Part shown: positions 17,588-52,345 of the stretch, piece by piece | Layout: each line of letters opens with the position of its first letter | Numbering within the stretch: the first letter of the stretch is position 1 | Assembly (NCBI GenBank): GCA_030446485.1 | Contig: JAUJNF010000001.1 | Location: 194,018-258,017, forward strand | Reading direction: 5' to 3' | Source of the DNA: Thermoleophilaceae bacterium | GTDB taxonomy: Bacteria > Actinomycetota > Thermoleophilia > Solirubrobacterales > Thermoleophilaceae | DNA length: 64,000 bases | The notes under the pieces: model-generated | Seen by the model: only the letters and a program-made list of their open reading frames with translations | Databases searched by the model: none | What the model was told of the DNA's origin: nothing | Translations under genes and position numbers: made by a program

Positions 17588-17628
17588 CGACTGTCACTGG
17601 CGGCGGTCGAGCGGTTAGGCTGGCTGGC

Positions 17629-17904
17629 ATGTGCCGGAACATCCGCCAGCTCCATAACTTCGAGCCGCCCGCCACCGAGGACGAGGTGCGAGCGGCCGCC
17701 CTGCAGTACGTCCGCAAGATCAGCGGCTCCACCAAGCCGTCGCAGGCCAACGCCGAGGCGTTCGAGCGCGCGGTGGACGCCGTGGCCGAGGTCTCCGCTC
17801 AGCTGCTCAGCGAGCTCGTGACCGCGGCCCCGCCCAAGGACCGCGAGGTCGAGGCGGCGAAGGCGAAGGCGAAGGCTCGCGCGGCGGAGCGGTACGCGGC
17901 CTAG
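17629..17904 (+). CDS. DUF2277 protein
   Basis: MCRNIRQLHNFEPPATEDEVRAAALQYVRKISG, the hallmark N-terminus. Confidence 0.8.
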   Translation: MCRNIRQLHNFEPPATEDEVRAAALQYVRKISGSTKPSQANAEAFERAVDAVAEVSAQLLSELVTAAPPKDREVEAAKAKAKARAAERYAA

Positions 17905-17934
17905 CTCGCACTCCCTCCGGCAGCGCCGAGGCGG

Positions 17935-25200: not shown

Positions 25201-25268
25201 CGAGCGGGGTCGGTCAGATACGCCTCGATGGCGCGCTCGAAGTCCCCCTCCTTGTACGGGCCCGTCAT
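22245..25268 (-). CDS. hsdR: type I restriction endonuclease subunit R
   Basis: 1007 aa. N-terminal nuclease region, helicase motifs HSAGSGKSNT and IIIDEAHSSQ, and the characteristic C-terminal domain. Its ATG overlaps the hsdS stop by 4 nt. Confidence 0.95.
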   Translation of the reverse strand: MTGPYKEGDFERAIEAYLTDPARGQARWLSGHPANYDAKLALDPVKLDAFIAATQAKQWQTLVTTRFGGDEGKARATFHQTVAKMLDSQGVLRCLRVGVSVMGVDFELAYFRPEHGLTKELTELYAANRVTVVRQLIYSTKNTNELDLVLFVNGLPVATAELKNKLTKQTVKHAMKQYRSDREASEPIFARRAIAHFAVDTDEVYLATKLASQDTVFLPFNRGHNNGKGNPPGTGGKYATSYLWEEVWQRDNWLDILRRFVHVSKNDDGERSVIFPRFHQWDAVLRLLAHARTNGAGHNYLIEHSAGSGKSNTIAWLAHRLAVLHADDEPVFDKVIIVTDRLVLDQQLGDTVYQFEHKTGLVQKTKGGSSELAAALSSATSRIIISTLQKFPFVIEKLGELPDRNYAIIIDEAHSSQGGEAAKALRTALGAGAAAAVDEEDKSEDEDEPSEAEVQDLIAASVKARGKQPNLSYFAFTATPTRRTLELFGSAVGGDQRAPFHLYSMRQAIEEGFILDVLRRYTPYSVLWQVASESGGDQEVENSKATQAIVKCVSRHPETLDEKARVIVEHFHHAVAPKVGGHAKAMVACASRELAVLTYFALTKAAKAQGHESFKPLVAFSDAVSVSGTSYTEAELNGFGEAELPGKFAWVPTGDPEKDAGHELHRLLVVAEKYQTGFDQPLLHTMYVDKKLRGIRAVQTLSRLNRIHPEKDDTFVLDFVNAGADIRDAFEDFYEATMTSATSPAEMYVAHGALTAYPVIDVADEQAFAGVFLGSDPLEPTAHAQLIGHLQGAVERFAQLPDDDERKGFRAALSKFLDIYGFLAQAVAFNDPKLEATFLYGRHLQNALPTQEGGSLDLGGDIVLTHLRIEALAEQDVSPGQGGTVSDPESGEVLPPVEPTKDRLAVIIADLNTRFGAELGSGDRIILEQVLGEMAEDPELVQEAKVNSKDNFLLVFGGAFEEEMLKTDNTNKAFFERFFSDETFRADLIAGVGEEFHRRSGGDELAA

Positions 25269-26494
25269 GCGGCAGACCTCTGCGCGACGTGCTTCGCACC
25301 GAGGACCGTTTGGTCAAGGACAAGGCGTCGGCGACGTTCGTGTAGGGACCGGAGCTGATGGTCGAGTTGAGTGGTCAGCGTGCGGGTCGTATCGAGTGCG
25401 TCGTCCAACCGCCGAGCGAGGTCGTCCTGCGCGTCGCCGACCGGGACAGGAACTTGTACGCGCTTCAGGTTGCGAATGTTGATGCCGCGAACGGCGCTTC
25501 CCATCGCGCCCTCGTTCAGCTGCGTGAACACGAACTGCGAACGCAACGCGTGGTAAAGCCATCGTGTGCTGACTCCGGTAGCCGGCGCGATGCGGGCAAC
25601 ATCACGAGACACGTTGGCCCCGGCCAGTGACGGCGGCACCTCGGCCACCGCGCCGAAGCTTCCTCGAATGGACATCACCAGGTCCGCTGCTTCCAGCCGT
25701 GCGCGCGCGTAGGGCTGCTCAACCTCAGGCGTCGTACGTCGAAGGTTGTCGGGGTGAAGGCGCTCTGCTTCGACGTCCCCGGCATCAATGACGGAGATGC
25801 CTTCTGAGACGGACGGCCCGGGCATAAGAATGCCGTACATCGGCGGACGAGCCGGGTCCACGAGGTACATGAGGGGCGTGCGCCGCCCCGTGTCCTCCGC
25901 CCCTACGATGAGCGCGTTGGTCAGCGCCTGGTGCCGCTCAGCGACGAGTTGGCGCTGTCGGCCTTTCAGCTCCGAGAGTGCGTCGAGATGCCGCGTCTCG
26001 ACGTCCAGCACCTTTGCGATGGCCCGCTGCGCCGCCGTCGGTGGAACCTCGACCCACGTCGCCAGAAACCGACGAAGGTCGAGGTTCGCCAGCGTCGTTT
26101 CGTTCGCGAACCGTCTGCCGTCACCTCGCGCCCAGAGCGCTTGAAGCAGGTACCAGGCAAAGCGTGAGTCCACGCCCTCACGCGAACGTAGCCGAACCAA
26201 GAAGTTTGAACTGATGGCGCGGGTTGCTCCCTCAAACAGTGCTGGGAATCCGACGTTGCCTGACTTTTCGAGCAAGATATCTCCACGTTCGAGTAGCCGC
26301 CCCCGCTGGGCCGAGGCGGGCACGGCACGCGTCGTGTCGAGGTCTTCGCGCACCATGAACTTCGCTCGGTCGAAGTCGGCTACTCGCGCGCACGCGACGT
26401 CATCGTCTCCGCCAGTCGGGTCCTCTCCCCAGAGGCCAGCGACCGGTGGTTCGAACAGGTACTTCAGGCGAACGCGGCGAGTCTGGGTGGTCAC
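25265..26494 (-). CDS. hsdS: type I restriction-modification specificity subunit
   Basis: 409 aa with two variable target-recognition regions separated by conserved helical spacers. It sits between hsdM and hsdR with 4-nt overlaps on both sides. Confidence 0.9.
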   Translation of the reverse strand: MTTQTRRVRLKYLFEPPVAGLWGEDPTGGDDDVACARVADFDRAKFMVREDLDTTRAVPASAQRGRLLERGDILLEKSGNVGFPALFEGATRAISSNFLVRLRSREGVDSRFAWYLLQALWARGDGRRFANETTLANLDLRRFLATWVEVPPTAAQRAIAKVLDVETRHLDALSELKGRQRQLVAERHQALTNALIVGAEDTGRRTPLMYLVDPARPPMYGILMPGPSVSEGISVIDAGDVEAERLHPDNLRRTTPEVEQPYARARLEAADLVMSIRGSFGAVAEVPPSLAGANVSRDVARIAPATGVSTRWLYHALRSQFVFTQLNEGAMGSAVRGINIRNLKRVQVPVPVGDAQDDLARRLDDALDTTRTLTTQLDHQLRSLHERRRRLVLDQTVLGAKHVAQRSAA

Positions 26495-28458
26495 GAGCTC
26501 TCGGCCACCCGTTCCAGGAGCCGCTGCACCTCGTGTTCGGTTTGCCGAAGGTCTTCGTCAATCTCGTCCAAAGGACGTAGGACCTCATCGCGATGAAACA
26601 CTCGCGTGAACGGAAGCTCGCATCCCTCGCGTCCTTGTGGCTCCGAGACCCACGCGTCGGGGGCGAACTGCAGAACTTCGCGTTCCATGTACTCCTCGAC
26701 GCTTTCACCGAGCGGGACTAGCTCGTACTCACGGAGGTCTGGGTCCGGTTCTATGTCGCCCTTCTTGTTGCGAACCTCCGGCGCAGCGGCATCGCGGGTA
26801 CTGAGCGCTGCCCACAACGCCTTCTTTGCGGGCGCGGCAAGCTTGCTCGGGATGACTTGCGCAAGCTTCTGTCCGGCCTCGACACGGGCTGTCGTGTTGA
26901 GACCATTCAATGCTCTCAGCCCTGCGGCGAGCTGGTCCTGGAGCTCCATGCCGAACTTCTGGAAGGCGGCAAGTGCTTGCAGCCGCTCGACGGCCTCCTC
27001 GCCAGCGCGGTAGCGCAATCGCAGGGGGCGCTCGACCGCGACCCGGCGGTAACCGAACTCGTGGTTCTCGAACACCTTGGAGCGCTCGTCCTCCGCGTCG
27101 AACCCTCGCCAGAGGCCGAGCACCTGCTCGATGTGGTCGAGCGAGAGACGGCGGCGCTTGTTGCCGAGGCTCTTGGGCATCTGCTCCCACAGCTCCCGTG
27201 CGTCAATCAGCTGAACCTTGCCCTTGCGGCGCGTCTCCTTGCGGTCGGTCAACACCCAGAGGTAGGTCGAGATGCCGGTGTTGTAGAAGAGCTGCTCAGG
27301 CAGCGCGACGATGGCCTCAAGCCAGTCGTTCTCCAATTGCAACAGCCAGCGCCGGATTTCGCTTTCTCCCGAGCCGGCATCACCCGAGAAGAGAGGTGAC
27401 GCGTTGAAGATGATGGCGATGCGGCTGCCGGCGTCCTGCTCCGGCGGCTTCATCTTCGCGAGCATGTTCTGAAGGAAGAGCAAAGCGCCGTCGCTTTTTC
27501 GCGGGGTCCCGGCACCGAACCGGCCGTCGTAGCCCTTCTGTTCGTGTTCGGCGATGACCGCATCGTGGTCGGCTGCCCAGTCCACGCCGAACGGCGGATT
27601 GGCGAGCATGAAGTCGAAGCGCTGGCCCTCAGCACCGTCCGCCGACAGCGTGCTGCCAGGAGCGATGCGACCGGGGTCCTGCCCCTTGACGAGCAGCTCG
27701 GCGCGGCAGATGGCCCAAGACTCCGGGTTGAGCTCCTGACCGAAAGAAACCAGTCGGGCCTTCGGGTTGCGGTCGCGGACCAACTCCTCGACTACAGAGA
27801 GCATCCCGCCGGTGCCGCATGCCGGGTCGTACACGGTGCGGACGATGCCCGGCGTCGTAAGCAGCTCCTCGTCACCGGCGAGGACCAGTTCGGCGCAGAG
27901 CCGGACGACCTCACGCGGCGTGAAGTGCTCGCCGGCCGTCTCATTCGAGACCTCCGAGAAGCGCCGAATCAGCTCCTCGAAGATATCGCCCATGACCTCG
28001 TTCGGGACGGTGTCCGGGTGGAGGTCGAGGTCGGGGTCGAGGAACTTGCCGAGCACCGAGTAGAGCCGGTCGGCCTTCTCCAAGCGCGTGATGGTCGCGT
28101 CGAACTCGAACGCCTCGAAGATTTCGCGCACGACTGGGTCGAAGCCGGCGAGGTACTCGCGCAGGTGCGTCGCCGCGTGGTCGGGGTCGGCCATGACCTT
28201 TGCGAGCGACAGCTTCGACGCGTTGTAGAAGCGCTGGTCCGCCGCGCGCTTGAGGATGGGGTCGAGGTTCAGCCCACGGCCCTCGTACTTCGCCGCCTCA
28301 GCGAGCACGTGCTCCTTGGTCGGCTCCAGCACCTGGTCGAGGCGACGCAGCAGCGTCAGCGGCAGGATGATGCTGCCGTATTCGTGCTGCTTGAATGCGC
28401 CGCGCAGTCGCTCGGCGATTGACCAAATGAAGTTGACGTGGCCGTTGGTGGAAGGCAT
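26491..28458 (-). CDS. hsdM: type I restriction-modification N6-adenine DNA methyltransferase subunit
   Basis: Inner ATG MPSTNGHVNFIWSIAERLRG (HsdM N-domain). DPACGTGGML (AdoMet site) and MLANPPFG (NPPF catalytic motif) are present. Confidence 0.95.
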   Translation of the reverse strand: MPSTNGHVNFIWSIAERLRGAFKQHEYGSIILPLTLLRRLDQVLEPTKEHVLAEAAKYEGRGLNLDPILKRAADQRFYNASKLSLAKVMADPDHAATHLREYLAGFDPVVREIFEAFEFDATITRLEKADRLYSVLGKFLDPDLDLHPDTVPNEVMGDIFEELIRRFSEVSNETAGEHFTPREVVRLCAELVLAGDEELLTTPGIVRTVYDPACGTGGMLSVVEELVRDRNPKARLVSFGQELNPESWAICRAELLVKGQDPGRIAPGSTLSADGAEGQRFDFMLANPPFGVDWAADHDAVIAEHEQKGYDGRFGAGTPRKSDGALLFLQNMLAKMKPPEQDAGSRIAIIFNASPLFSGDAGSGESEIRRWLLQLENDWLEAIVALPEQLFYNTGISTYLWVLTDRKETRRKGKVQLIDARELWEQMPKSLGNKRRRLSLDHIEQVLGLWRGFDAEDERSKVFENHEFGYRRVAVERPLRLRYRAGEEAVERLQALAAFQKFGMELQDQLAAGLRALNGLNTTARVEAGQKLAQVIPSKLAAPAKKALWAALSTRDAAAPEVRNKKGDIEPDPDLREYELVPLGESVEEYMEREVLQFAPDAWVSEPQGREGCELPFTRVFHRDEVLRPLDEIDEDLRQTEHEVQRLLERVAESS

Positions 28459-28952
28459 AGGACGGGCGGCATGGCCGCGACCTTGTACGCGGGTACGCGC
28501 CAGCACTCGTATTTCTAGCCGCTCGCAGCTAGTCGCGCGAGCCACTCGCTACAGGCCAGGGTCGTCTATCCGCTTCGCTCGCCGCTTGCGCTAGCGCGAC
28601 ACCGCATCCTGAGCGCCTGGCAGGCTGAGAACGCGCGTGACGAAGGCGCGCGCCTGCTCCGTCCAGCCCGGCGACTCGCGCCCGGCGCTCAACCGCAGGT
28701 TCAAGCGCCGGCCGCCTCTTCCTACGAGAGACTCACCGCTGCGTCCACGAAGTGGCCCTGGTTGCGCAGCTGGTCTTCGAGGCCCTCCATCGCTACGGGC
28801 TGCGGACTAGTTCTAGCCGCCCAACTCCGGCGCTGGCGGTCCCCGCAGACCAGCCCTTCCCGCGCCTCTATCCCGCGACCGGGGTGTCGCGGGGCGTCAA
28901 GACCGCCCTTCGTGATTCTCCCGAGGCGACGACCGACCCCCTCCGCAGTCGG

Positions 28953-31385
28953 CTATTGCTCGATTAGGGCTTGAAGATCGTCGCTGCTCAGTTCGCGAGC
29001 CGGGTTGACCTGGCCGTTCACGACCGCGCCCTCGGCTTGCAGCATCTCCACCGGATCACGCGTGTCTTCGGGATCGGTCCACCTGAAGTTCGGGGCGACG
29101 GTCCCGTTGCTCTTGAGGAGGCGGTGAGCGTTCGTGCACTGCCGGCAGGTGGTCACGTGCGCGCCGAGCGGCTGAGCGGCCGTCCCCACCGCGTCCGCCA
29201 GACTGCCATAGGTGGTCCAATGACCCACAGGCAAGGCCGCAAGGATTGTGTGGAGGGCTGACCAATCGAAGCTTGGCGCCATTTTCGCAGGGTCCTCGCC
29301 GGTGTATATGGCTCGGACGTCGAGAAGCCTGCGGCCATCAGGCAGGCTCCAGAACCGCCAGCCGTTGGTGACCGAACCCCCCTTGACGTATCGGCCGGCG
29401 CCCGACGGCGAATCGAAGGTCTTCCCGTCGATGTCAAGGAGCCCGTCAGACCGCACGAGCGCGCTACGAGTCTCCCACGCGCCGGCGCGAGGGGTCAACA
29501 CCGTCCCGGGGGGAAGAAGCCTCGCATCGACGAGGTGTTTGACCTGGATCCAACCCGCTGACTTCTCGTGCGGGTCGACGACGATGCCTTCGTGGCCATT
29601 CGGTACCGGCCACTTCTCCAGGAGCACGTCAATCAGGGCTTCGGTCCGCGCGTCGATACCGGCCTCATCCCAGGTCCCGTCGAGCGTCGACAGAAGTCGG
29701 CTGTTGAGAAGCAGCGTGTCGTGAGCTTGCAGTGCCGTGCGCTTCGATTCCCACGGACCGTTAGAGACCTTGGAGTTCAGCGATGCGGTGAGCAGGGTCA
29801 GGTTTCCAAACCTATGGACGTGCTCGGCTCGGAGCTCCTCGGCGACTGGGTCGCTGACGGGCCAATGATCCGGCCATTTCTGGGGAAGAATGTGCTCGAT
29901 CGGGTATCCACGACGTGGAACCTGCGGCTGATTCGTCGAACGTCGATATTCGTCCTCGATTGCCTCGAAGAGCATCCGTAGACGAGACTTTTTGAAACGG
30001 CGGAAGACCTGCTCAGTGCGAAGCGCTCCCCGAATCTCATCGTCCCCAGGCCAGTACGTACTGGTCACGTTGAGCCGTGACAGGTATCCCTCGATACTCT
30101 CAGCCAGGCCAGCCGGCGGGGTGGGTTCATGCGCGCGGATGATGTCCGCGACGATGCGTCCCATGTCCGCGACAGCCAGGCGCAGGATCTGTCGTCGGAC
30201 CAGCCAGCTCTCGACTGCGGACGTGACGCGGTCGATTACGTCGGCCGGCACGTCGCGGCCGGGCTCGTGCAACCAGATCAGCAACGGCTTCAGCAGCTCG
30301 GTGCCCGACGCCTTCATCCGGTAGACGGCAAGCTCAACCCGGGTGAGCTGTCGGTCGCCCTCGTCCGCCACCGTCGTCCAACGCTCGTATGTCTCCGCCT
30401 GCTTCCGAATCACCGAAAGCAGATCCGCGACCTTCGTTCCTGTCTCGAGCTCGATCTGTTCGACGTACTGCTTGAAGCGCGTGAACGTGGCGCGGAGGCT
30501 GACTTCCTCGCCAAGACGCGTCATCAACCATTGGTTGAAAAAGAGCGAGCTTCGCGGCATGGCGTAGCGACCGACGCTGACCTCCTTCTCCCAGAACTCG
30601 GTCTCAAAGGGCCAATCGTCGAGATGGGCACGCGTGTCCGCCCCCTCGGCGGCCAAGCGCTGGAAAACGAAGTTCCTGATGAGGTCCGCCGCGGTGAGAG
30701 GTGTCCCTCTCGCGTTCAGCGTCTCGAAGATCTCCTGCGAGTTCTCGTTGATCGTTAGGTTGATGGCGACCAGCTGCAATCCGCGGGTCAGTACCCCCGT
30801 AAGCGCCTGCGCACGCTCCGCGACTCCGTCGGCCGCCGGATCCAACCACTCCGTTACGACTTCGGTGAAGTACTCGTGCGCGCGAACCACTCGACCTCCC
30901 GAGTGAAGGAGGGTCTCATGGGCGATGGGAGCCTCGGCGTCCATCACCTCGTCAAAGGCGTGCCGGTCCCGATTGCTATGGCGGAGCTTGAGTCGTGTCT
31001 CAGCGCCCGGGACGTAGATGTTCTCGTTGTGGGTGAGGCGATCGAGTTGTCCCGCAAGTGCGTCTTGACTGATCGTCTCAAGTGCCGCAGCAGCTGCATC
31101 CATGAGCAGCTGAAGTGTGGTCAGCCGCTGCTGCCCGTCGATGATGCTGCTCGCTTGGAGGCCGCCGAGTATCGGCTCCTGCGCTTGTACGACGATCGCG
31201 CCGAGGAAGTGCTTGGCTTCGGCAGCCGGTTGCGCGATCCGGATAGCCGCCAGGCGTCGGACGTCCTGCCAGAGCGGCGCCCACTGTTCCTCCTTTTCCC
31301 AAACATACGGGCGCTGGAACGGGGGCACCACGAGGTGCTGCGGCTGCATGAAGACGTCCTGCGGAGTCCGGACGTGCGTTTCCAT
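28953..31385 (-). CDS. GmrSD-family (DUF262 + DUF1524) type IV restriction-like enzyme with C-terminal RAMA and alkyltransferase-like (MGMT DNA-binding) domains
   Basis: VVPPFQRPYVWEKEEQW and IIDGQQRLTT (DUF262). YPIEHILPQKW...HRFGNLTLLTASLNSKVSN (DUF1524 His-Me finger). LLPPGTVL...DGKTFDSPSGAGRYVKGGSVTNGWRFW (RAMA-like, about 29304-29549). GHWTTYGSLADAVGTAAQPLGAHV...NAHRLL (ATL-like without Cys, about 29061-29273). Confidence 0.85.
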   Translation of the reverse strand: METHVRTPQDVFMQPQHLVVPPFQRPYVWEKEEQWAPLWQDVRRLAAIRIAQPAAEAKHFLGAIVVQAQEPILGGLQASSIIDGQQRLTTLQLLMDAAAAALETISQDALAGQLDRLTHNENIYVPGAETRLKLRHSNRDRHAFDEVMDAEAPIAHETLLHSGGRVVRAHEYFTEVVTEWLDPAADGVAERAQALTGVLTRGLQLVAINLTINENSQEIFETLNARGTPLTAADLIRNFVFQRLAAEGADTRAHLDDWPFETEFWEKEVSVGRYAMPRSSLFFNQWLMTRLGEEVSLRATFTRFKQYVEQIELETGTKVADLLSVIRKQAETYERWTTVADEGDRQLTRVELAVYRMKASGTELLKPLLIWLHEPGRDVPADVIDRVTSAVESWLVRRQILRLAVADMGRIVADIIRAHEPTPPAGLAESIEGYLSRLNVTSTYWPGDDEIRGALRTEQVFRRFKKSRLRMLFEAIEDEYRRSTNQPQVPRRGYPIEHILPQKWPDHWPVSDPVAEELRAEHVHRFGNLTLLTASLNSKVSNGPWESKRTALQAHDTLLLNSRLLSTLDGTWDEAGIDARTEALIDVLLEKWPVPNGHEGIVVDPHEKSAGWIQVKHLVDARLLPPGTVLTPRAGAWETRSALVRSDGLLDIDGKTFDSPSGAGRYVKGGSVTNGWRFWSLPDGRRLLDVRAIYTGEDPAKMAPSFDWSALHTILAALPVGHWTTYGSLADAVGTAAQPLGAHVTTCRQCTNAHRLLKSNGTVAPNFRWTDPEDTRDPVEMLQAEGAVVNGQVNPARELSSDDLQALIEQ

Positions 31386-31790: not shown

Positions 31791-33431
31791 GTGACGCCGA
31801 CTGAGCTAGCGCGAATCCATGCTGAGTTGGAAGGAATAGGGCATGTCCTGCGGGACCGGCGGCTCGCGGTCCCTTCGTATCAGCGCGCCTACTCCTGGCG
31901 GGAACCGCAGGTCGCTGACTTCTGGTGGGACCTACGCGCGGCGTTTGGATCTAAAGCGTCGCAGTACTTCCTTGGATCGATCGTCATCACTGAGGACACG
32001 GAGAGTGGCGGCAGCACCGTCATCGACGGCCAGCAGCGCCTCGCAACCACGGTGATGCTGCTCGCGGCATTCCGCAATCAGTTCGTGACGCGCGGAGATT
32101 CCGACAGGGCCCAGGTGCTCGAGCGCGACTACATCGCGTCAAGGACCTTAAGGACAACGGATCTCGAACCGCGCCTTACGCTGAACGTCACAGATCGAAC
32201 ACAGTTTCGAGAGCTCGTGATCGCACCGCCCGACGCTACTTCGAGCGGTCAAGACGGCGAGCGGAACGCTCTAATGGATCAGGCGTTTGGCTTCCTCGCT
32301 GCGCGTGTCGATGAGGAAGCCCACGCCGCCGGGCGACATTGGGCCGAGCGGCTCGTCGAGTGGGTCGACTTCCTCGAAGAGCGCGCCAGGGTGATCACGG
32401 TAGATGTGTCGTCGGAAGCGGACGCATTCCTCATTTTCGAGACTCTCAACGCTCGGGGCCGAGAGCTTACGGTCGCCGATGTGCTTAAGAACTACCTGTT
32501 CGGACTCGCGCGGGACGAGCTTGAGGCGGTACAGGAGCACTGGCTGTCGGCAATCAGGGCCCTGGAAACCACGGCCGACGAGGAAATTTTCACCACATTC
32601 GTTCGGCACCATTGGAGCTCCTCCAGGGGCGCGACTCGCGAGCGAGAGCTCTATGCGCGCATGAAGTCTGGCCTGACGACTTCTTCCGCTGCCTTGACGT
32701 TCGCCGACGACCTAGACGCTGCCGCCCCTTCCTATGCGGCGTTGCTTAGCTCGGATCACGAGCATTGGACGGCTTCTCCGGAATTGCAGCCGGCCGCGCA
32801 GACACTTCTGCGCTTCGGCCTTGAGCAGAACCGACCGTTGCTCCTCGCGGCAATGCGGCGGTTCGAGTCAGCCGAATTCGCGCAGCTCCTGCGTGCCGTC
32901 ATCTCGTGGTCGGTACGGGGCCTCATCGTGGGCGGTATCGGTGGAGGCAGTACGGAGCGTGCCTATGCCGACGCGGCGGTCCTTGTTAGCGAGCGGACGA
33001 TCTCCACGACGAAAGATGTCTTCGTCGAGCTCGCGTCAGTTATCCCCACAGACGAGTCGTTCATACAGGCGTTCGCACAGCGGCGCGTCAACCGGACCAG
33101 GCTGGCCAAGTACTACCTCATCGCTCTAGCGCAATCCGAGGATGGAAATGCGAGCCCTCTCTTTGTGTCGGACGAGATCGATCAGGACTATCGGCTTGAA
33201 GCGGTGATCCCCCGCAATCCGAACCCTGAGGAGTGGCAAGGATTTCCTGCCGATGAGCTGCGCCAATGGGCTCTGCGCCTCGGGAACCAGTACGTGAGCG
33301 ATTCGCAGGGAGCACGCGCGCCCGTCGGCGATGACCTCGCCTCTCCGGACGTATTCGGACCGGACGACATCGTAGATCGTCAGCGACGCATGGCCGAGCA
33401 AGCGGTGGCGATATGGCCACGACCCTTCTGA
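31791..33431 (+). CDS. DUF262 protein with degenerate DUF1524-like C-terminus
   Basis: GTG start with AAGGA 6 nt upstream. VPSYQRAYSW and IDGQQRLATT are present. The C-terminal YRLEAVIPRNP...LRLGNQYVSDSQ occupies the place of IEHILPQ...GNLTLL...N. Confidence 0.8.
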   Translation: MTPTELARIHAELEGIGHVLRDRRLAVPSYQRAYSWREPQVADFWWDLRAAFGSKASQYFLGSIVITEDTESGGSTVIDGQQRLATTVMLLAAFRNQFVTRGDSDRAQVLERDYIASRTLRTTDLEPRLTLNVTDRTQFRELVIAPPDATSSGQDGERNALMDQAFGFLAARVDEEAHAAGRHWAERLVEWVDFLEERARVITVDVSSEADAFLIFETLNARGRELTVADVLKNYLFGLARDELEAVQEHWLSAIRALETTADEEIFTTFVRHHWSSSRGATRERELYARMKSGLTTSSAALTFADDLDAAAPSYAALLSSDHEHWTASPELQPAAQTLLRFGLEQNRPLLLAAMRRFESAEFAQLLRAVISWSVRGLIVGGIGGGSTERAYADAAVLVSERTISTTKDVFVELASVIPTDESFIQAFAQRRVNRTRLAKYYLIALAQSEDGNASPLFVSDEIDQDYRLEAVIPRNPNPEEWQGFPADELRQWALRLGNQYVSDSQGARAPVGDDLASPDVFGPDDIVDRQRRMAEQAVAIWPRPF

Positions 33432-40502: not shown

Positions 40503-41583
40503 CTACGAGCCTCCCGGCACGGCCTCGGCGAGCGCGGGCGCCGCCGTGACCGACGGCGCCAGGCCGAACGCCTCGGCGATCAACTCGTACGAGCGCCGCC
40601 GCGTCTCGTGCTCGAAGGTGATCGTGACCACCATCACCTCGTCGGCGCCGTAGTCACGCGCAACCTGCTCCAGGCCGGCGCGCACGGTGTCGGGGGAGCC
40701 GATCACCGCGCGGCGCCCGCTCGGAGCGGCCGAGGGCCCTTCGCCTCGAAGTAGCGCCGCGCCGTGTCGACCGGCGGGACGGGGATCAGCCGGCCGCGGT
40801 TCATCATCGACCTGCTCATCCGTCCGCTAAGGGCGAGCTCCTCCGCCTCCTCGTCGGTGTCGGCGCAGATGGCCGCCACGCACACGGCCACACGCGGGGC
40901 GGCCAGGCGGTGCCCGTGCTCGAAGGACTCGCGGTAGAAGTGGGCGATCTCCGGGTGTCCGGGGTTGATGAAGTCGGCGAACGCGTAGGGAAGGCCGAGC
41001 TGGCCCGCCCAGATCGCGCTCTGCAGTGAGGAGCCGAGGAGCCACGGCTCGGGCGCAGCCGGTGCGGCGGGCAGCGGCGCGAGCCCGGCGAAGCGCCGGT
41101 CCGGCGGCGGGCGGTTCTCGAGGTAGGCGAGCAGCTCGGCGAGCTGCTCGGGGAAGTCGTCGGCTCCGGGCACGCGCCGCTCGCGCTGCAGGGCGTGGGT
41201 GGTCATCGGGTCGGTGCCGGCGGCGCGGCCGAGGCCGAGGTCGATCCGCTCGCCGTAGAGCCCGCTCAGCATGCTGAAGCTCTCGGCCACCTTGCGCGGG
41301 CTGTAGTGAGGAGCATCACGCCGCCGCTGCCGACGCGGATGCGCTCGGTGGCCGAGGCGATCGGCCCGATCAGCACCTCCGGGCTCGCGCTCGCCAGCAT
41401 CGGCGTGCCGTGGTGCTCGGCGACCCAGTAGCGGTGGAAGCCGAGCGCGTCGGCCAGGCGCGCGAGGTCGAGCGTGTTGTGGAGGGCCTGTGCGCCGGTC
41501 GAGCCCTCGGAGACGGGCGACTGGTCGAGCACGCTGAGCTGAAGTGGCGGCCGCCCGGGCGCGTTCTCGTCGGGCGCCGGCAT
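40503..41583 (-). pseudogene. luciferase-like (LLM class) flavin monooxygenase split over three frames
   Basis: LSVLDQSPV...YWVAEHHGTPMLASASPEVLIGPIAS...GSGGVML | PHYSPRKVAESFSMLSGLYGERIDLGLGRA... | VIGSPDTVRAGLEQVARDYGADEVMVVT. Frame changes occur near 41305-41315 and 40706-40745. Confidence 0.75.
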
Positions 41584-44566: not shown

Positions 44567-44986
44567 GTGGACGACGCCGACTCCCACAGCGTGCGGGAGA
44601 TCCTCGGCCTTCACGCCTTCGCGGTGGTTGGCTGCTCGCCGGACCCGTCGCGCGACAGCCACCGCGTGTCGCGCTTTCTCCAGTCGAAGGGCTACCGCGT
44701 GGTGCCGGTGAACCCGGCGGTCGACGGCGAGCTGCTCGGCGAGCGCTGCTACCCGAGATTGGCCGACGTCCCCGAGCCCGTGGAGGTGGTGGACATCTTC
44801 CGCCGCGCCGACCAGGCCGGGCAGCACGTGGACGAGGCGATCGCCATCGGTGCCAAGGCGGTGTGGATGCAGCTCGGGGTGATCGACGAGGCCGCGGCCG
44901 AGCGGGCGCGCGCCGCCGGCCTGAAGGTGGTGATGGACCGCTGCCCGGCGATCGAGCATCCGCGCCTCTTCGGTCGGCGCGGCTAG
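44567..44986 (+). CDS. CoA-binding domain protein
   Basis: FAVVGCSPDPSRDSHRVSRFLQSKGYRVVPVNP...CYPRLADVPEPVEVVDIFR. Confidence 0.85.
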   Translation: MDDADSHSVREILGLHAFAVVGCSPDPSRDSHRVSRFLQSKGYRVVPVNPAVDGELLGERCYPRLADVPEPVEVVDIFRRADQAGQHVDEAIAIGAKAVWMQLGVIDEAAAERARAAGLKVVMDRCPAIEHPRLFGRRG

Positions 44987-46098
44987 GCGAACACCTTCTC
45001 CGACGCCTCGGCCTTCTCCGGCAGCGCCTGCTCCGAGAAGGCGGGATCGTTCTCGTGGCGGCGGAAGAAGTCGACGATCGGCTTGACGTACTCGCCGAAC
45101 TTCGGGCACCGCAGCCCCTGGCGCTCGAGCATGTCGCCCGTGCGGCGGGTGTCGAACCGCACCTCGTGATTGAGGTAGCGGATCGACTCACGCGGGGTGC
45201 CCCCCAGGAACCGCTGCAGCGGCTTTATCCGCAGCGACTCCGCGACCACCGGGCCGGGCACGCGGTAATCGGGACCCTTGCCAAGGTACTCGTGGCTCAG
45301 CATGCCGAGCAGCTCGGACGCCCGCAGGGGCTCGGGGTCGACGAGGTGGAAGGTCTCCCCCATCGACTGCGGGTCGCGGGCGGCGGCCACCATCGCGTCC
45401 ACCACGAAGTCCACGGGCACCACGTTGAAAGGCGCCTCTGAGCGGCCGACCTGCGGCACGGGCATGTTGTGCTCGCGCAGCTTCTGCAGCATGCGCAGCA
45501 GGTAGTAGGGCCCGTCGAACTTCTGCGTCTCGCCGGTGCGCGAGTCACCCACCACGATCGCCGGCCGGTAGATCGTCGTCGGCACGCTGCCCATCGCGTC
45601 GCGAACCCAGACCTCGGCCTGGAACTTGGTCGACTCGTAGTGGTTCTTGAAGCGCTGCCCCATCAGCAGCTCGTGCTCGTACACGACGCCCTTGCGAAGG
45701 CCCGCCACGTAGGCCGTGCTCACGTAGTTGAAGCGCTCGAGCCCCTCCGCCCGCGCGCACAGCTCGATCACGTTGCCGGTGCCCTCCACGTTCACCCGCT
45801 GCGCGATCTCGAGCGGCACCGCGAGGTTGTAGATCGCCGCGAGGTGGTAGACGGTCGTGACCTCTCCCACAAGTCGTTCGTAGGCGGTGGCGTCGAGGCC
45901 GAGGTGCCGGTCGGCGATGTCGCCGGGGAGCACCTCCACGCGCTGGTCGATCACGGCGGCGGCGGCCGTGGCCTGGTCGAGCATCCGCGGCTCGACCAGG
46001 CAGGTCACGCGCGCGTCCGGATCGCCCGCGACCAGCGAGGCCACGAGGCGGGTGCCGAGGAAGCCCGGGAAGCCGGTGACGAAGGTCGCGCCGGCCAT
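44983..46098 (-). CDS. SDR-family NAD-binding reductase (fatty acyl-CoA/thioester reductase-like)
   Basis: FVTGFPGFLGTRL, YESTKFQAE (YxxxK). Confidence 0.8.
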   Translation of the reverse strand: MAGATFVTGFPGFLGTRLVASLVAGDPDARVTCLVEPRMLDQATAAAAVIDQRVEVLPGDIADRHLGLDATAYERLVGEVTTVYHLAAIYNLAVPLEIAQRVNVEGTGNVIELCARAEGLERFNYVSTAYVAGLRKGVVYEHELLMGQRFKNHYESTKFQAEVWVRDAMGSVPTTIYRPAIVVGDSRTGETQKFDGPYYLLRMLQKLREHNMPVPQVGRSEAPFNVVPVDFVVDAMVAAARDPQSMGETFHLVDPEPLRASELLGMLSHEYLGKGPDYRVPGPVVAESLRIKPLQRFLGGTPRESIRYLNHEVRFDTRRTGDMLERQGLRCPKFGEYVKPIVDFFRRHENDPAFSEQALPEKAEASEKVFA

Positions 46099-46409
46099 CA
46101 GCCTGCGAGCCCCTTGCCGCCGACGGGGATCAGCTCGATCGGCTCGGCGAAGTCCTCGATGACCTCCAGCGCCTCCTCGATCGCCCCGCGCTTGCGTGCG
46201 TCCGCCAGGGCGGCGTCCATGTCCTCCTGGCTACTCCACACCTCCGTGACCCAGACCGTGTCCGGTTCGCCGGCGACGCGGTTGATCACGTACAGCTCGC
46301 AGCCCGGCTGGCCCTCCGCCGCGCGCGCCTCGCCCAGCAGGATCTCGGCCAGGCGGTCACCCTGTCCGGGCTCGGCGACGGCCCGGGCGTAGCGGCCGAT
46401 GCGGGGCAT
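46098..46409 (-). CDS. antibiotic-biosynthesis-monooxygenase (ABM) fold protein
   Basis: 103 aa. GCELYVINRVAGEPDTVWVTEVWSSQEDMDA pattern. Its stop overlaps the downstream ATG. Confidence 0.7.
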   Translation of the reverse strand: MPRIGRYARAVAEPGQGDRLAEILLGEARAAEGQPGCELYVINRVAGEPDTVWVTEVWSSQEDMDAALADARKRGAIEEALEVIEDFAEPIELIPVGGKGLAG

Positions 46410-46462
46410 GACGCGATTATGCCGCCTGACGGTTGACTCGGAGGGCTCGCGCGCGGCTCGGG

Positions 46463-47026
46463 TCAGGCCGGCGCCCCGGCCCCCTTCCGCACCGCGTCCA
46501 TCACCTCGTCCATCGGCGCGTTGTCGGCCGAGTCCCCGTTGTAGTGGGCGAGCAGGACGCGGCCGTCGCTGCCGATCACGAAGGTGCCGGGCGACTGCTT
46601 CACGTCGCCGCCCTTCGGGAGCCCCACGAAGTGGCCCTTCGTGGCGGCCTTCAGGGTGGTCAGCGCCTGCTTCGGCCCGATGAAGTCCATGGCCGAGTAC
46701 TCGGCCAGCGCCAACTCGCGGTAGGCCTCGCGGTCGGGATCGCCGTAGCAGTCGACGGTAGCCCCACGCTGGCGGCAGAAGTTGCGCACCGGCTGGGCGC
46801 GGTACTGGAAGACGGCGATCACGTCGCCGCCCGCGGACCGGATCTCCTCGTGGGCCTCACTCAACTGAGCGAGGTGCGCGCGGCAGTGCGGTCAGCCGAA
46901 GTGGCGCTCGAACGCCAGGATGAGCGGGCCGTCCCGCCACCGGTCGCTCACGTCCACCGGACCGTCGACCGACTGGAGGGTGATCTTCGGGAAGGCGTCG
47001 CCGGCCTTCAACCGCTCGGCGGCCAT
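46463..47026 (-). CDS. peroxiredoxin-like (AhpC/TSA, PRX_like2-type) redoxin with in-frame UGA in a UxxC motif; candidate selenoprotein
   Basis: Own translation from ATG 47026: MAAERLKAGDAFPKITLQSVDGPVDVSDRWRDGPLILAFERHFG[TGA 46894-46892]PHCRAHLAQLSEAHEEIRSAGGDVIAVF... The track shows only the part after TTG 46864. Confidence 0.7.
46855..46874 (-). other. SECIS-like hairpin within the redoxin mRNA
   Basis: mRNA CCUCGCUC-AGUU-GAGUGAGG, 8 bp including one G.U. It starts 17 nt after the UGA, with GU in the apical loop. Confidence 0.5.
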
Positions 47027-47469
47027 CAGGCGGTCGCCCCGGCGGCCTGGCCCACCTCGACGCTCAGCTCCACCGGGATGTTGCCGCGGGTGGCGTTCGA
47101 GTAGGGGCAGACCTCGTGCGCGCGCTCCACGAGCGCCCGGGCCTCGCTCTCGTCCATGCCGGGAATGGCCACTTGCAGCTCGACCTCGAGTCCGAAGGCG
47201 CCCTTGCCGATCATCCCGATGCCCACGCGCGCGGTCACGCTCGACTGGCTCACGTCCTTGTCCTGCTTGCCGGCCACCACCTGCAGGGCGCTGCCGAAGC
47301 AGGCGGCGTAGCCTGCCGCGAAGAGCTGCTCCGGGTTCGTGGCGTCGCTATCGGAGCCGCCCATCTCCGGTGGCACGGCGATGTCCACGTCGAGGTGGCC
47401 GTCCGAGGTGCGTGCGTGGCCCTGGCGGCCGCCGGTGGCGGTGGCCTCGGCGGTGTAGAGCGTCTTCAT
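47026..47469 (-). CDS. ohr: organic hydroperoxide resistance protein (OsmC/Ohr family)
   Basis: NPEQLFAAGYAACFGSAL and AHEVCPYSNATRGNI, the two conserved Cys motifs. Confidence 0.9.
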   Translation of the reverse strand: MKTLYTAEATATGGRQGHARTSDGHLDVDIAVPPEMGGSDSDATNPEQLFAAGYAACFGSALQVVAGKQDKDVSQSSVTARVGIGMIGKGAFGLEVELQVAIPGMDESEARALVERAHEVCPYSNATRGNIPVELSVEVGQAAGATA

Positions 47470-47493
47470 GTCGTGCGGGTCCCCTTTCTGGGG

Positions 47494-49461
47494 TCAGTCG
47501 GAGGAGGCGACGATCGCCTCTGAGGTCCGGTGGGCCATGGCCATCGTCGTGACCATCGGGTTGGTGCCGGTGGCGGTGGGGAAGCACGAGGCGTCCCCGA
47601 TCCACACGCCCTTGGTGTCGTGGAGCTGGCCCCACGGATCGGCCACGCTCGTGGACGGGTCCTTGCCCATCCGGCACGAGCCCATCTGGTGGAGGGCGAA
47701 GATCGCGGAATCGTAGGGGGTGACCGGGGCGTCGTGCACGCGTTGGCGATAGGCGTCCACATCCTCGCCGCGCTTCCAGTGCAGGAGCTTGCGGTGGAAG
47801 GTCAGGATCTCCCGCGCACCCGCGGCGTCGTGCAGCTTCACCATCTCCTCCATGCCGCGACGGAAGATGCGCTCGTCGAGCTCGTCGGTTATGTCGTAGT
47901 GGTGGACAGCGTTGCCGCGCTGGTCGATCGTTACCCGGCCGTGCCCGCGGTCGCGGATGAGGAAGACGAACGACGCCTGCTCCGCGCCGGTGGACATGAA
48001 ATCCTTGTGCTGGCGTCCGCTCTCCCACGGCACGGCCGAGCCGAACAGGCCCGGGCTCGTGTGCGCTCCCTCGATGAGGAAGCCGTGCCCGTCCTCGAGG
48101 TTCGAGTAGACGTCGGTGAGCCCGCTCTGCGGCGGCCCCCACCAGGACTTCTGCGGCTCGGCGTATACGCCGAGCACGGCGGTGGCCGGGTGCAGGCGGA
48201 GGTAGTCGCCCACCGCCGGCCCGCCGATCCCGGAGCGCAGCAGCAGCGCCGGCGAGTCGAGCGCGCTGGCCGCCACCACCACCTGCGGGGCCTTCACGGT
48301 CACGCGCGTCTGGTCGCCCTCCGGGCCGGTGTAGGTGGCCTCGACGCCCGTGGCGCGGCCGTTCTCGGCCAGGATGCGGTCCGCGCGGCAGCGCACCACG
48401 AACCGCGCGCCGTGCTCGTGGGCGTCCATCAGGAACGTCTTGAGGGTGCCCTGCTTGGAGCCCGACTGGTCGCCGTAGCCGAGGAAGCCGGCGGTGTCGG
48501 GCGAGTAGGTGGACGGGTCGGTGTTGCGAGTGATCCTGCGGAAGGGGTAGCCGAGCTTCTTGCAGCCCTCCTCCAGGCGCTGGTGGGGGCCGTTGTACTC
48601 GCTGCACGCGTCGGTTACGCCGATGCGGCCGAAGACCGTGTCGAGGTGGCGGTCGTAGTCCGGGCCGTCGAGGCCCTCGAGCCCGTGCTGATTGGCCCAC
48701 TCGTCCCGCACCCAGCCGTTCGTGCGGATGCAGTTGGTCCAGTTGACGGTGGTGCCGCCGCCGAGGTTGGAGCCGGCCTGGATGGTGATCGAGCCGTTGG
48801 CGGTCTGGGTGACCCCGCCCTCGCGGTAGATGTTCTCGTAGGCCCACAGCTCGAGCTGGTTGAAGTCGGACTCGTTGTAGTAGCCGCCCGCCTCGAGCAC
48901 GATCACGTCCTTGCCCGCGGCCGCCAGACTTGCGGCGGCGACGCCACCGCCCGCCCCGGACCCGATCACGCACACGTCGGCGGTGAGGGTCATCTCCTCG
49001 CCGCTCGGCACGATCGGCTGGATCGGCTTGGGCACGTCGGGCGGGGCCGACACCGGACCCGGGTAGCCGATCGCCGGCCAGTTGGGGTTGCGGCCCGTCT
49101 CGGGGTCGGGCAGCGCGTAGAAGAGCATGAGCGCGAGCCCCTTCAGCGCGGAGATGCCGGCAAGGCCGTCCGGGCCGGACTCGGCCACCCCGTGCACGAT
49201 CTGCTCGCGGAGCTCCTGCGGCGCCTCGGGCGTGAGGCCCTGTGCCGCCAGGCCGTCGAGGAGCTGGCGCATGCCCTCGAGCTCCTCCTCCTGAAGGGTG
49301 GCGAGCTTCTGCTCCATGGCGTCGGGCACGCCGATGTCGGAGCCGGCGCGCGCGAACAGCCCGTGGGGGTCGTCGGGCACATCGAGCGAGGGGGCGAACG
49401 TGTCGCAGGCGGCGGTCAGAGCGGCGCGCTGGACCTCGGACAGGGTGACGCTTACGGCCAT
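47494..49461 (-). CDS. GMC-family FAD oxidoreductase (long-chain alcohol oxidase-like N-extension)
   Basis: VCVIGSGAGGGVAAASLAAAGKDVIVLEAG and a C-terminal HQMGSCRMG motif. Confidence 0.9.
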   Translation of the reverse strand: MAVSVTLSEVQRAALTAACDTFAPSLDVPDDPHGLFARAGSDIGVPDAMEQKLATLQEEELEGMRQLLDGLAAQGLTPEAPQELREQIVHGVAESGPDGLAGISALKGLALMLFYALPDPETGRNPNWPAIGYPGPVSAPPDVPKPIQPIVPSGEEMTLTADVCVIGSGAGGGVAAASLAAAGKDVIVLEAGGYYNESDFNQLELWAYENIYREGGVTQTANGSITIQAGSNLGGGTTVNWTNCIRTNGWVRDEWANQHGLEGLDGPDYDRHLDTVFGRIGVTDACSEYNGPHQRLEEGCKKLGYPFRRITRNTDPSTYSPDTAGFLGYGDQSGSKQGTLKTFLMDAHEHGARFVVRCRADRILAENGRATGVEATYTGPEGDQTRVTVKAPQVVVAASALDSPALLLRSGIGGPAVGDYLRLHPATAVLGVYAEPQKSWWGPPQSGLTDVYSNLEDGHGFLIEGAHTSPGLFGSAVPWESGRQHKDFMSTGAEQASFVFLIRDRGHGRVTIDQRGNAVHHYDITDELDERIFRRGMEEMVKLHDAAGAREILTFHRKLLHWKRGEDVDAYRQRVHDAPVTPYDSAIFALHQMGSCRMGKDPSTSVADPWGQLHDTKGVWIGDASCFPTATGTNPMVTTMAMAHRTSEAIVASSD

Positions 49462-49521
49462 GACGAACCTCTCTCTTCCCTCGGGTGCTCCTGTGCGCCG
49501 GAGACTACCGAGGCGCCGGGC

Positions 49522-50409
49522 TCAGCCCGCCAGCCAATCGCGCACGATCGCGCCGATCTGCTCGCCCTTGTCCTCCTGGAGGAAGTGGCCGGCGTCCTCG
49601 ATCACGGTGAGCTCGTCGGCGGTCGGGAACAGCATCTGCACCTGGCGCCCCACCGGCTCGAGCGGCAGGGCGGGGTCGGAGTCCGCCCACAGGAGCAGCG
49701 ACGGCCGGGGGTTCTCCACCAGCGCCCTGGCCGCCGTCTGGCCCGCGGCGGCGCCGGGCGCGTCGGGGGTGAGGGGGATCATCGGCGGGAAGGTACGCGG
49801 GCCGGCCTTCGACTCCTGGCTCGGGAAGGGAGCGGCGTACGCCGCCACCACCTCGGGTGGCGGCTCCGTCTTGCAGCCGCGCGCCACCAGCATTTCCACC
49901 GGTAGGTCGGGCGTGCGGACGACGAAGTCGCGAAAGGCCTTCCAGCCGTCGCTCATCTCCTGGTGGCCCGTGAAGAGGCCGGTGTCCATCGCGACGATGC
50001 GCGACACGCGGTCGGGCAGCTCGGTGGCGGCGATGCGCAGGCCGATCGGGCCGCCCCAGTCCTGGACGACGATCGTCACGTCGCTGAGGTCGAGCTCCTC
50101 GAAGAGGGCGACGAGCGCGGCGGTGTGGTTGTCGTACGAGTACCAGCCGTCGTCGATGGGCTTGTCGGAGCGGCCGAAGCCGGGCAGGTCGGGCGCGATG
50201 CAGCGGTGGCCCGCCGCCAACAGCGGATCCATCACCTTGCGGTAGAGGAACGACCACGTCGGCTCGCCGTGGAACATCACGACCGGCGATCCCTCCCCCT
50301 CGTCGACGTGGGCGAGCCGCAGGCCCTGCCAGTCGCGGTACTTCGGCTACGGGAAGCCGGGGAGGCTCTCGAAGCGCTCGTCAGGGGTGCGGTAGAAGTC
50401 GATGGGCAT
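49522..50409 (-). pseudogene. haloalkane dehalogenase paralogue interrupted by an in-frame TAG
   Basis: MPIDFYRTPDERFESLPGFP[TAG 50349-50347]PKYRDWQGLRLAHVDEGEGSPVVMFHGEPTWSFLYRK...VVQDWGGPIG. The track splits it into 50347..50565 and 49522..50280. Confidence 0.75.
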
Positions 50410-50473: not shown

Positions 50474-51427
50474 TCACCCCGTCGAGTGGCTGCGCGGGTT
50501 GTCGTACACCTCCTTCTCCCACGGCGGGCTGACGCCGCTGCCCGGCAGCGGGCGGTAGGCGCCACGGTCCACGGACTCGAGCGGCACCAGGCGCAGGCCC
50601 GGCCCGGTGCTCGTGCGCTCGCGCAGGTCGCGGCCCGGGTACTGCGGCTCGTAGCGGTAGTCGCCGTGCACGAAGGGCGGCCGCCGGTCGAGCCGGGTGT
50701 CGGTCCGCTGCGACCGCAGGGGGATGTGGCCCGCGTGGCTGCCCCACGAGACGCGTGTCCAACCGGTCCACGGCGTCCAGCGGTCGCGGCAGCGGCGCTG
50801 CTTGCAGCCCTGGTAGCCGTCGTGGGACGAGGCGCGCACCGTCGCCCGGCCGTCGGCGCCGAGCCGCACCTGGTAGCTCTCCCAGTCGTCGGGGTGGTAG
50901 CCAGGCGGCCGGGGCGGCTCGATCCCCACCAGGCCCAGCGGACTCACGGCCGTCTCGAACGCGCCCGAGAGGTTGGCCACCGAGGTGCGCGACTGCGGGT
51001 AGTAGAGCCAGTACTGGATGAAGGTCTCGCCGCCCTCGCGCACCACGCGGGTGAAGGCCGTGGCGCGGTGGCCACCGCGCGCCGAGCGGTGCGCGTCGAG
51101 GTCGGGATCGTCGGGCGCGTCCGAACAGCGGCGCGAACGGCACTCGCGCCAGTCCACGGGCAGGCTGAACGTTCCGGGCTCGTAGACGAGGTTGGGCGCG
51201 TGGCGGCGGACCAGCGCGGCGTTGCCGGGCCCATAGGCCGCCGCCAGGTCGTCGTCGCCCTCGTCGCAGCCGCCGCGCGCCGCGCAGAGGACCGAGTGGG
51301 CGAGGAAGCCCCCGAAGGCCCGCCCGTCGACCCGCGGGCCGACCGTGAGCAGTGCCCCGAGCGCGAGCGTGACCACGAGCATCAAGGCCGTCCATTCGAC
51401 GGTGGCCACGCCGCGTTCGCATCTCAT
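50474..51427 (-). CDS. membrane-anchored hypothetical protein with TadE-like N-terminus
   Basis: MRCERGVATVEWTALMLVVTLALGALL followed by a Cys/Trp-rich soluble domain. Confidence 0.6.
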   Translation of the reverse strand: MRCERGVATVEWTALMLVVTLALGALLTVGPRVDGRAFGGFLAHSVLCAARGGCDEGDDDLAAAYGPGNAALVRRHAPNLVYEPGTFSLPVDWRECRSRRCSDAPDDPDLDAHRSARGGHRATAFTRVVREGGETFIQYWLYYPQSRTSVANLSGAFETAVSPLGLVGIEPPRPPGYHPDDWESYQVRLGADGRATVRASSHDGYQGCKQRRCRDRWTPWTGWTRVSWGSHAGHIPLRSQRTDTRLDRRPPFVHGDYRYEPQYPGRDLRERTSTGPGLRLVPLESVDRGAYRPLPGSGVSPPWEKEVYDNPRSHSTG

Positions 51428-52149: not shown

Positions 52150-52345
52150 GTCTCCTTCGGTAGGCGCCTACGGGGTTAGCTGTCGGGCTCGCGCAGAAGG
52201 ACTGCGCTACGCCGCATGTGCGGCGACTCGCCCCGGGGCCGGCCAACAGCCGACCCAAGCGGGTCCCCCGATCCCCGCCGCCTGGGCGGTGAGGACTCGG
52301 CTGACATATGTCGAAGGGCGGCATGGTAGCGATTTCGCCCCCCCA
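52150..52345 (-). promoter_or_regulatory. ydaO/yuaA-type (cyclic-di-AMP) riboswitch in the 5' leader of the Rpf-like gene
   Basis: Minus-strand leader contains AAAUCGCU, GGGGGACCC, GGGGCGAGUC and CCCGACAGCUAACCCCGUAGGCG, and ends in CCGAAGGAGA (SD). These match the conserved blocks of the ydaO motif as I recall them. Confidence 0.75.

Follow-up and report, generated by a model that had tools for sequence, protein, structure and literature searches.

Does the in-frame UGA codon of a redoxin gene from a Thermoleophilaceae bacterium end translation, or does it encode selenocysteine (Sec)? The gene occupies 46463..47026 on the minus strand of the 64-kb stretch of DNA analysed here, which we call the window and whose positions serve as coordinates throughout. 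We suggest that it is very probably a functional Sec-decoding gene in which the UGA at codon 45 (UGA45) is read as Sec. As a complete selenoprotein gene it would encode a SelL-related, PRXL2-type thioredoxin-fold redoxin of 187 amino acids (aa) with a U45-P-H-C48 redox motif, as its translation, its Pfam and NCBIfam matches and its Cys homologues indicate. A first-pass annotation of the window had preferred Sec to a nonsense mutation at this codon. The preference is supported by TGA at the same position in 43 of 61 homologous genes, by a covarying hairpin found with TGA forms only, by a ratio of nonsynonymous to synonymous substitution rates (dN/dS) of 0.30 upstream of the TGA, and by the persistence of the arrangement in diverged lineages.

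The layout of the gene is unambiguous. Its ATG start codon (47024..47026, minus strand) shares one base with the TGA stop codon (47028-47026) of ohr, the gene immediately upstream (TGATG; context cctgATGg), and full-length homologues begin at the residue equivalent to this ATG. Forty-four sense codons ending ...GPLILAFERHFG lead to the TGA at 46894-46892, and 142 sense codons opening PHCRAHLAQLSEAHEE... follow, up to the true stop codon, also TGA, at 46463..46465; the frame thus comprises 188 codons including the stop. Sequence and translation agree with the first-pass annotation on the start codon and its shared base, the 44 codons, the TGA and the stop at 46463. The in-frame UGA (46892..46894, minus strand) is the putative codon for U45, at the first position of the CxxC redox motif, an assignment based on the homologous codons and on an alignment with human PRXL2B. 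Its partner in the resulting UxxC motif would be Cys48, encoded by TGC at 46883..46885 (minus strand) and matching an invariant Cys in a 56-sequence alignment. A mechanical list of open reading frames (ORFs) splits the gene into ORFs of 44 aa (46892-47026) and 133 aa (46463-46864), the latter with an internal TTG as its start. UGA is the ordinary terminator of both ohr and the redoxin gene itself, so read-through at UGA45 must be locally signalled.

We compared the codon at the U45 position across 61 homologous genes, drawn from a scan of GTDB species representatives (51 loci) and from close relatives fetched later. It is TGA in 43 genes and TGC or TGT in the remaining 18, within the flank RHFG-U-PxCR, a result that strongly favours Sec. 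The second position of the redox motif is Cys in all 43 Sec forms. TGA forms occur in metagenome-assembled genomes (MAGs) of Solirubrobacterales and Thermoleophilaceae (50-63% identity to the query), in other Actinomycetota, in Chloroflexota and, with 31-37% identity, in a delta-proteobacterial MAG and others. OY970293.1 (L018), a complete chromosome from Solirubrobacterales, has the TGA form as well. A protein search covering a collection of 5.8 billion proteins returned full-length homologues of ~180-188 aa that carry FMRHFGCxFCREHL and align end to end with the redoxin. It also returned ~40 clusters of 128-137 aa, all of which start at the residue matching the internal TTG of the window gene, as would be expected of gene callers halting at a conserved TGA. 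The 44-aa and 133-aa pieces are always adjacent and in frame, and exactly one TGA separates them.

Both pieces evolve as protein. Upstream of the TGA, 36 codons align without gaps and are conserved throughout the 24 Thermoleophilia-type loci with the Sec form, 22 of which are GTDB species representatives. Median pairwise dN/dS among these 24 forms is 0.30 for the 36 upstream codons and 0.41 for 100 codons downstream, and hence both halves are under purifying selection. In several Thermoleophilia genomes, one or two matches to the Cys form of the motif lie 0.7-3 kb upstream of the Sec gene (in locus coordinates, L006 9387; L009 4773; L010 7462 and 8007; L013 1778; L014 7240). The two L010 ORFs (7336-7887 and 7884-8438) are tandem Cys copies; the match in L006, which diverges past the motif, is perhaps not a paralogue. 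A single genome can thus hold both Sec and Cys versions.

The signal expected next to such a codon is a selenocysteine insertion sequence (SECIS), which in bacteria is a stem-loop immediately 3' of the UGA with a small, G-containing apical loop (PMC1088965, PMC9312934). The candidate bacterial SECIS of the redoxin gene lies at 46855..46874 on the minus strand, with its 5' arm at 46874-46867, an AGUU loop at 46866-46863 and its 3' arm at 46862-46855, and its geometry agrees with these published descriptions. The first-pass annotation had placed a hairpin here, 17 nucleotides (nt) past the UGA, and RNAfold recovers it as CCUCGCUC-AGUU-GAGUGAGG, with one G.U pair in the stem, in both the minimum free energy and the centroid structure. 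The 71-nt region folds only marginally better than its shuffles (z = -1.35), which for a single sequence is not significant by itself, and the case for the hairpin consequently rests on comparison.

That comparison is clear. When 32 Sec forms are aligned without gaps, the eight stem pairs show standard pairing in 98% of cells, and six of the eight have changed on both sides in a compensatory manner (for example CCUCGCUC/GAGUGAGG, CCUGGUCC/GGACCGGG and CGUCGCGC/GCGCGACG). None of 500 column shuffles matched the observed pairing or covariation, and sliding the 3' arm by 1-3 columns as a control lowered pairing to 29-47% (maximum 46.5%). RNAalifold, unprompted, predicts the same helix. Among TGA forms, 7-8 of the 8 pairs are present in 42 of 43 and GUU stands in the loop in 43 of 43, whereas the 18 Cys forms typically retain 3-5 of 8 pairs, and none has GTT at the loop site. 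The hairpin is thus kept in UGA-containing orthologues only. The loop also imposes CAG-UUG for Gln-Leu. Of 197 Leu codons in five neighbouring genes only 2 are UUG, and the fixation of this rare codon in the loop means that a constraint at the RNA level outweighs codon preference.

The combination is also specific. We defined a composite signature as an in-frame TGA flanked on either side by at least 30 open codons, together with a hairpin of at least 7 bp whose AGTT loop lies 18-39 nt downstream. Across ~947 kb on both strands (window and related loci) the redoxin family accounts for 32 occurrences, and the single remaining one falls in a frame of non-coding composition. The window itself holds 16 candidates for TGA read-through, and a hairpin with a GUU-containing loop is found at the redoxin only; of the other 15, two form hairpins with different loops and the remainder form none. 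As further selenoprotein genes these window candidates were rejected, those checked falling in antisense frames of real genes. We regard the 8-bp stem, AGUU loop and fixed 17-nt spacer as a well-defined, covariation-supported and modestly new variant of the predicted bacterial SECIS. A related arrangement is seen in eight LASLAK-type forms (L036-L040, L042, L044 and L049), in which the SECIS is shifted by one nucleotide (~20-38 nt after the TGA) and consists of a 3-nt GUU loop on a stem of 7 bp (UUGGCUA/UAGCCAA or CUGGCUA/UAGCCAG); the sequence encodes L-A-S-L-A in place of A-Q-L. Most of these forms are labelled Chloroflexota or Roseiflexaceae; the labels of L044 and L049 ('uncultured Klebsiella sp.') and of L038 ('Singulisphaera') look like MAG mislabels.

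How the arrangement fares over shorter evolutionary distances can be seen in contigs from three other samples, which carry a 133-aa fragment at least 90% identical to that of the window. Their gene order is hydrolase, GMC oxidoreductase, ohr, 44-aa ORF and 133-aa ORF, and loci L052-L057 have the same one-base overlap with ohr (ohr end 9839, 44-aa ORF start 9839). In pairwise comparisons of the window, L052 and L055, 51-60 of the 564 nt of the redoxin gene differ, with no indels and no extra stops, and 24 of the 45 codons that differ between the window and L052 do so synonymously. All three of these lineages, which are ~10% divergent, retain the TGA, the hairpin, the frame and the ohr overlap. 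The first-pass annotation had named close relatives with TGC and no hairpin as the outcome that would speak against it; the relatives instead keep both TGA and hairpin. Codons 47-62 (46838-46885), which bear the SECIS, have zero substitutions among the three. Between the window and L052 the identical run extends over 33 consecutive codons (47-79; 46709-46885), although the gene differs by 9% overall. This invariant stretch, reaching beyond the 20-nt hairpin, could reflect a longer RNA element or a combined protein and RNA constraint.

We then asked what kind of protein the gene would encode, scoring profiles with U replaced by C. Pfam matches are AhpC-TSA_2 (PF13911, 53.3 bits versus a threshold of 27), AhpC-TSA (PF00578, 49.1 versus 26) and Redoxin (42.1). 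The best NCBIfam match is NF040769, 'SelL-related redox protein', which aligns over profile positions 4-172 of 173 (169/173), and six Sec-form and three Cys-form relatives score 121.7-174 bits, above its cutoff. The first-pass annotation had put the TGA at the first Cys of a redoxin motif F-x-R-G-x-x-C-P-x-C-R. The position stands, while the motif itself is, in this family, F-[ML]-R-H-F-G-[CU]-x-[FS]-C-R. The closest solved structure by sequence is human PRXL2B, a prostamide/prostaglandin F synthase (9us9, E = 6.4e-8, residues 23-178 aligned). As a stand-in for the window protein we took the AlphaFold2 model of a 56%-identical Cys homologue, which has a predicted local distance difference test score (pLDDT) of 91 and places the motif Cys just before helix 46-57; a CxxC active site in the thioredoxin fold usually sits just before the first long helix. 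Foldseek matches of this model are peroxiredoxins, prostaglandin F synthases and ResA-type thiol-disulfide oxidoreductases, with PRXL2B among them at a template modelling (TM) score of 0.69-0.78.

The active site of peroxiredoxins is the peroxidatic motif PxxxT/SxxC. A typical peroxiredoxin was considered and rejected for the redoxin: PxxxTxxC is missing, R41-H-F-G-U45-P-H-C48 having Sec at the Thr/Ser position and Arg at the Pro position, and the best NCBIfam thiol peroxidase match reaches only 16.2 bits versus a cutoff of 140. The predicted product is a thioredoxin-fold UxxC redoxin, not a typical peroxiredoxin. Two further Cys residues, C84 and C93 (NFCRQRGATVDCYGDP, window 46640-46669 region), are invariant in 25/25 and 56/56 aligned family members and might provide a second disulfide, serve as a resolving site or make up a metal site.

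Taken together, these features fit the following course of events. With the ribosome at UGA45, the hairpin 17 nt downstream (8-bp stem, AGUU loop) would act as a bacterial SECIS. As the ribosome draws near, the apical part of the hairpin would recruit the SelB-GTP-Sec-tRNA(Sec) complex, and Sec would be inserted at UGA45 in place of termination. In the finished protein, U45 and Cys48 would cycle between the selenol/thiol and the selenenylsulfide states. The one-base overlap of the ATG with the ohr stop suggests translational coupling; the redoxin is probably co-translated with Ohr and probably takes part in peroxide or disulfide redox chemistry, which as far as gene layout can indicate would place both proteins in one peroxide-defence context.

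Several observations weigh against Sec decoding. No selA, selB, selD or tRNA-Sec gene was found in the 64-kb window or in 57 related loci. ARAGORN found the window to be free of tRNA genes altogether and detected no tRNA-Sec among 54 loci; neither a motif scan nor tblastn with the E. coli K-12 proteins gave a match to SelA, SelB or SelD in the window and the fetched loci; and Pfam annotation of ~45 window genes turned up nothing tied to selenium metabolism. The window protein scores 119.1 bits against NF040769, 0.9 below the curated cutoff of 120, and its motif FERHFGUPHCRAH departs from the family norm FMRHFGUPFCREH, with E40, H47 and A50 replacing the M, F/S and E of the family. A luciferase-like monooxygenase gene in the window is broken (40512-41538, minus strand, in three frames), a lesion of the kind that the first-pass annotation had mentioned, and shows that gene decay or assembly error has occurred here. 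Finally, the hairpin is unmatched in Rfam even at E <= 10. We give this last point little weight; to our knowledge, Rfam holds no general bacterial SECIS model. The negatives for sel genes are uninformative because 64 kb is a small part of a multi-megabase genome, and we infer that SelB and tRNA(Sec) exist in the source genome and that selenium is incorporated into the product.

Could the gene be a pseudogene? A recent TGC-to-TGA nonsense mutation, or the loss of the Sec machinery, would then have inactivated a former redoxin, and both the broken luciferase-like gene and the failure to find Sec machinery in the window would fit such a history. However, TGA is the ancestral state of the clade and is carried by 43 genes, and TGA, hairpin and intact frame have been kept in three ~10% divergent lineages with the synonymous changes and lack of indels described above. 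Selection upstream of the TGA is purifying, and any decay that followed a loss of Sec decoding could only have begun very recently, in this one strain. As judged from sequence comparison, a nonsense mutation private to the window is excluded, since diverged lineages keep the TGA, and we consider a pseudogene of any origin very improbable.

Sec decoding also has to be set against two accounts in which the gene is alive and makes something else. The UGA might be read through without selenium, by a near-cognate tRNA (Cys or Trp) or through a generic effect of the hairpin, to give a CxxC or WxxC protein. The hairpin spacing and the small G-containing apical loop, however, fit a bacterial SECIS (PMC1088965), the UGA sits precisely at the catalytic Cys/Sec site, and UGA terminates the neighbouring genes; moreover, a Sec/Cys dichotomy with the hairpin in TGA forms only is the classic selenoprotein pattern. 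We see hardly any room for selenium-free read-through, and equally little for two separate products, a peptide of 44 aa that terminates at the UGA and a protein of 133 aa initiated at the internal TTG (46864). Gene callers do report such pieces, both here and in ~40 related clusters. But the 133-aa piece has nothing of the redox motif of the thioredoxin fold, nor its third strand and its two N-terminal ones; the TTG proposed as a start is part of the SECIS loop, where its conservation is explained by the RNA; and the two pieces invariably adjoin in frame across a single TGA.

The genomic setting of the putative selenoprotein gene offers some hints about its role. The upstream gene ohr (47026..47469, minus strand; TIGR03561, 184.9 bits versus a cutoff of 88.85; Pfam OsmC) encodes a Cys-based organic hydroperoxide reductase, a standard two-Cys Ohr. 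Both genes belong to a string of closely spaced genes on the minus strand (44983..50280), assigned by Pfam, that also contains an alpha/beta hydrolase (49522-50280) and a GMC flavin oxidoreductase (47494-49461) upstream, and an ABM monooxygenase-like gene (46098-46409) and an NAD_binding_4 reductase (44983-46098) downstream. Spacing and strand suggest that the string may be an operon. A scan of this region for promoters and terminators returned nothing above chance. The hydrolase-GMC-ohr-redoxin order is conserved in close relatives of the window, and adjacency to ohr is limited to these; at other loci the redoxin has unrelated neighbours (RPE65-type oxygenase with SDR, GGDEF-EAL, MFS, dUTPase). 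Conserved neighbourhood was dropped as a clue to function for this reason.

As gene layout goes, Ohr is likely a functional partner of the redoxin or a gene co-expressed with it. A more specific proposal is that a widespread, mis-annotated Sec redoxin of Thermoleophilia and related soil Actinomycetota is coupled here to ohr and serves as a selenium-dependent Ohr reductant or in a second peroxide step; Thermoleophilia and related Actinomycetota are largely known from soil. We put this forward tentatively and think it rather unlikely to be correct in full. The only reductants reported so far for Ohr in actinobacteria are lipoylated proteins and thioredoxin/thioredoxin reductase (PMC4486171), so that an Ohr-reductant role of the redoxin is offered as a hypothesis.

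Downstream of the redoxin gene the close relatives are arranged differently. In L052 (10440-10826) and L055 (10439-10825) a gene for a 128-aa ChaB-family protein follows directly on the opposite strand, and the window has only a 53-nt spacer at this position (46409-46463). The ABM gene follows in the window and in L052 and is not called in L055. L052 further carries, a few kb downstream of the redoxin operon (13875-17933), genes for an RtcB RNA ligase and a Ro60/TROVE-vWA protein along with a five-gene tRNA cluster (Arg, Tyr, Asp, Met and Phe); RtcB and Ro60 gave no tblastn match in the window.

Some other features of the window deserve mention. A cyclic di-AMP riboswitch lies at 52150-52312 on the minus strand (Rfam RF00379, 64.6 bits versus a gathering score of 38), upstream of a 317-aa ORF (50474-51427, minus strand) that has no Pfam match; in relatives, a PG_binding/transglycosylase gene stands between the riboswitch region and the orthologue of this ORF. 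Between ~19000 and 34300, G+C content at third codon positions drops to 0.65-0.82 versus ~0.95 elsewhere. This segment holds the type I restriction genes HsdR (22245-25268, minus strand) and HsdM (26491-28545, minus strand), two GmrSD-type endonucleases (28953-31385, minus strand; 31791-33431, plus strand) and a GGDEF protein, and is probably a horizontally acquired defence island. The broken luciferase-like gene has two frameshifts relative to an intact 359-aa orthologue in L052: residues 17-92, 93-285 and 280-359 match different frames, and Pfam covers profile positions 85-242 only. It is either a real pseudogene or the result of two assembly indel errors.

For annotation, the consequence is direct. 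Public databases keep this gene and ~40 related clusters as fragments of ~130 aa without an active site, where the correct product would be a 187-aa UxxC protein. The gene would also imply that an actinobacterium of 70% G+C decodes UGA as Sec and hence needs selenium, and the TGA form is common to its relatives among Solirubrobacterales and Thermoleophilaceae MAGs. We found no link between Thermoleophilia and selenoproteins in the literature that could be searched. The alignment of the AGUU SECIS could be the starting point of a model with which to detect more selenoprotein genes in these lineages, and the one-base overlap with ohr provides a testable hypothesis of function for the redoxin family. 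The general picture of bacterial Sec decoding is unchanged; a specialist would not be surprised by the catch, which is nonetheless useful for annotation.

It remains to place the locus among known systems. Like the SECIS of E. coli fdhF, the redoxin element lies within the coding sequence, nucleotides to tens of nucleotides 3' of the UGA, and has a small apical loop in which G is followed by U. The fdhF stem contains a bulged U, whereas the redoxin element has a perfect 8-bp stem without one, and its loop is the 4-nt AGUU (3-nt GUU in Chloroflexota forms). PRXL2B (PDB 9us9/9usa) shares the motif region, its RRFGCVVCR aligning on RHFG[U]PHCR with the first Cys on U45. Unlike the window protein, however, it is a eukaryotic Cys enzyme, identity is only ~22%, and it is without the extra invariant C84 and C93 of the bacterial family.

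Among selenoproteins, SelL (SELENOL) of fish, invertebrates and marine bacteria (PMC2397514, PMC2398784) is likewise a peroxiredoxin-like thioredoxin-fold protein with Sec in an xxC/U redox motif. SelL, however, has UxxU and forms a diselenide, whereas the window protein has UxxC and would form a selenenylsulfide. SelL proper was ruled out for the window gene by the TGC codon of Cys48 at the second position, and no UxxU is seen in any of the 43 Sec forms. Further close counterparts are the peroxiredoxin-like thiol:disulfide oxidoreductase selenoproteins with UxxC or UxxU, predicted in bacteria from the first prokaryotic selenoproteome surveys onward and also included in reviews (PMC1794560, PMC2398784, PMC9312934, PMC13188914). 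By their published description, with WP_010940744.1 as an exemplar, they share with the window protein an AhpC/TSA-type fold (pfam00578), Sec as the first residue of UxxC and a SECIS directly 3' of the UGA. The published examples come mostly from anaerobic Deltaproteobacteria and marine metagenomes, whereas the window gene sits in a 70% G+C actinobacterial genome and the nearest relatives of its product are in Solirubrobacterales and Thermoleophilaceae. Overall, the gene is an unannotated, database-split member of an already known kind of selenoprotein, and what is modestly new is the abundance of the Sec form in Solirubrobacterales and Thermoleophilaceae genomes and its overlap with ohr.

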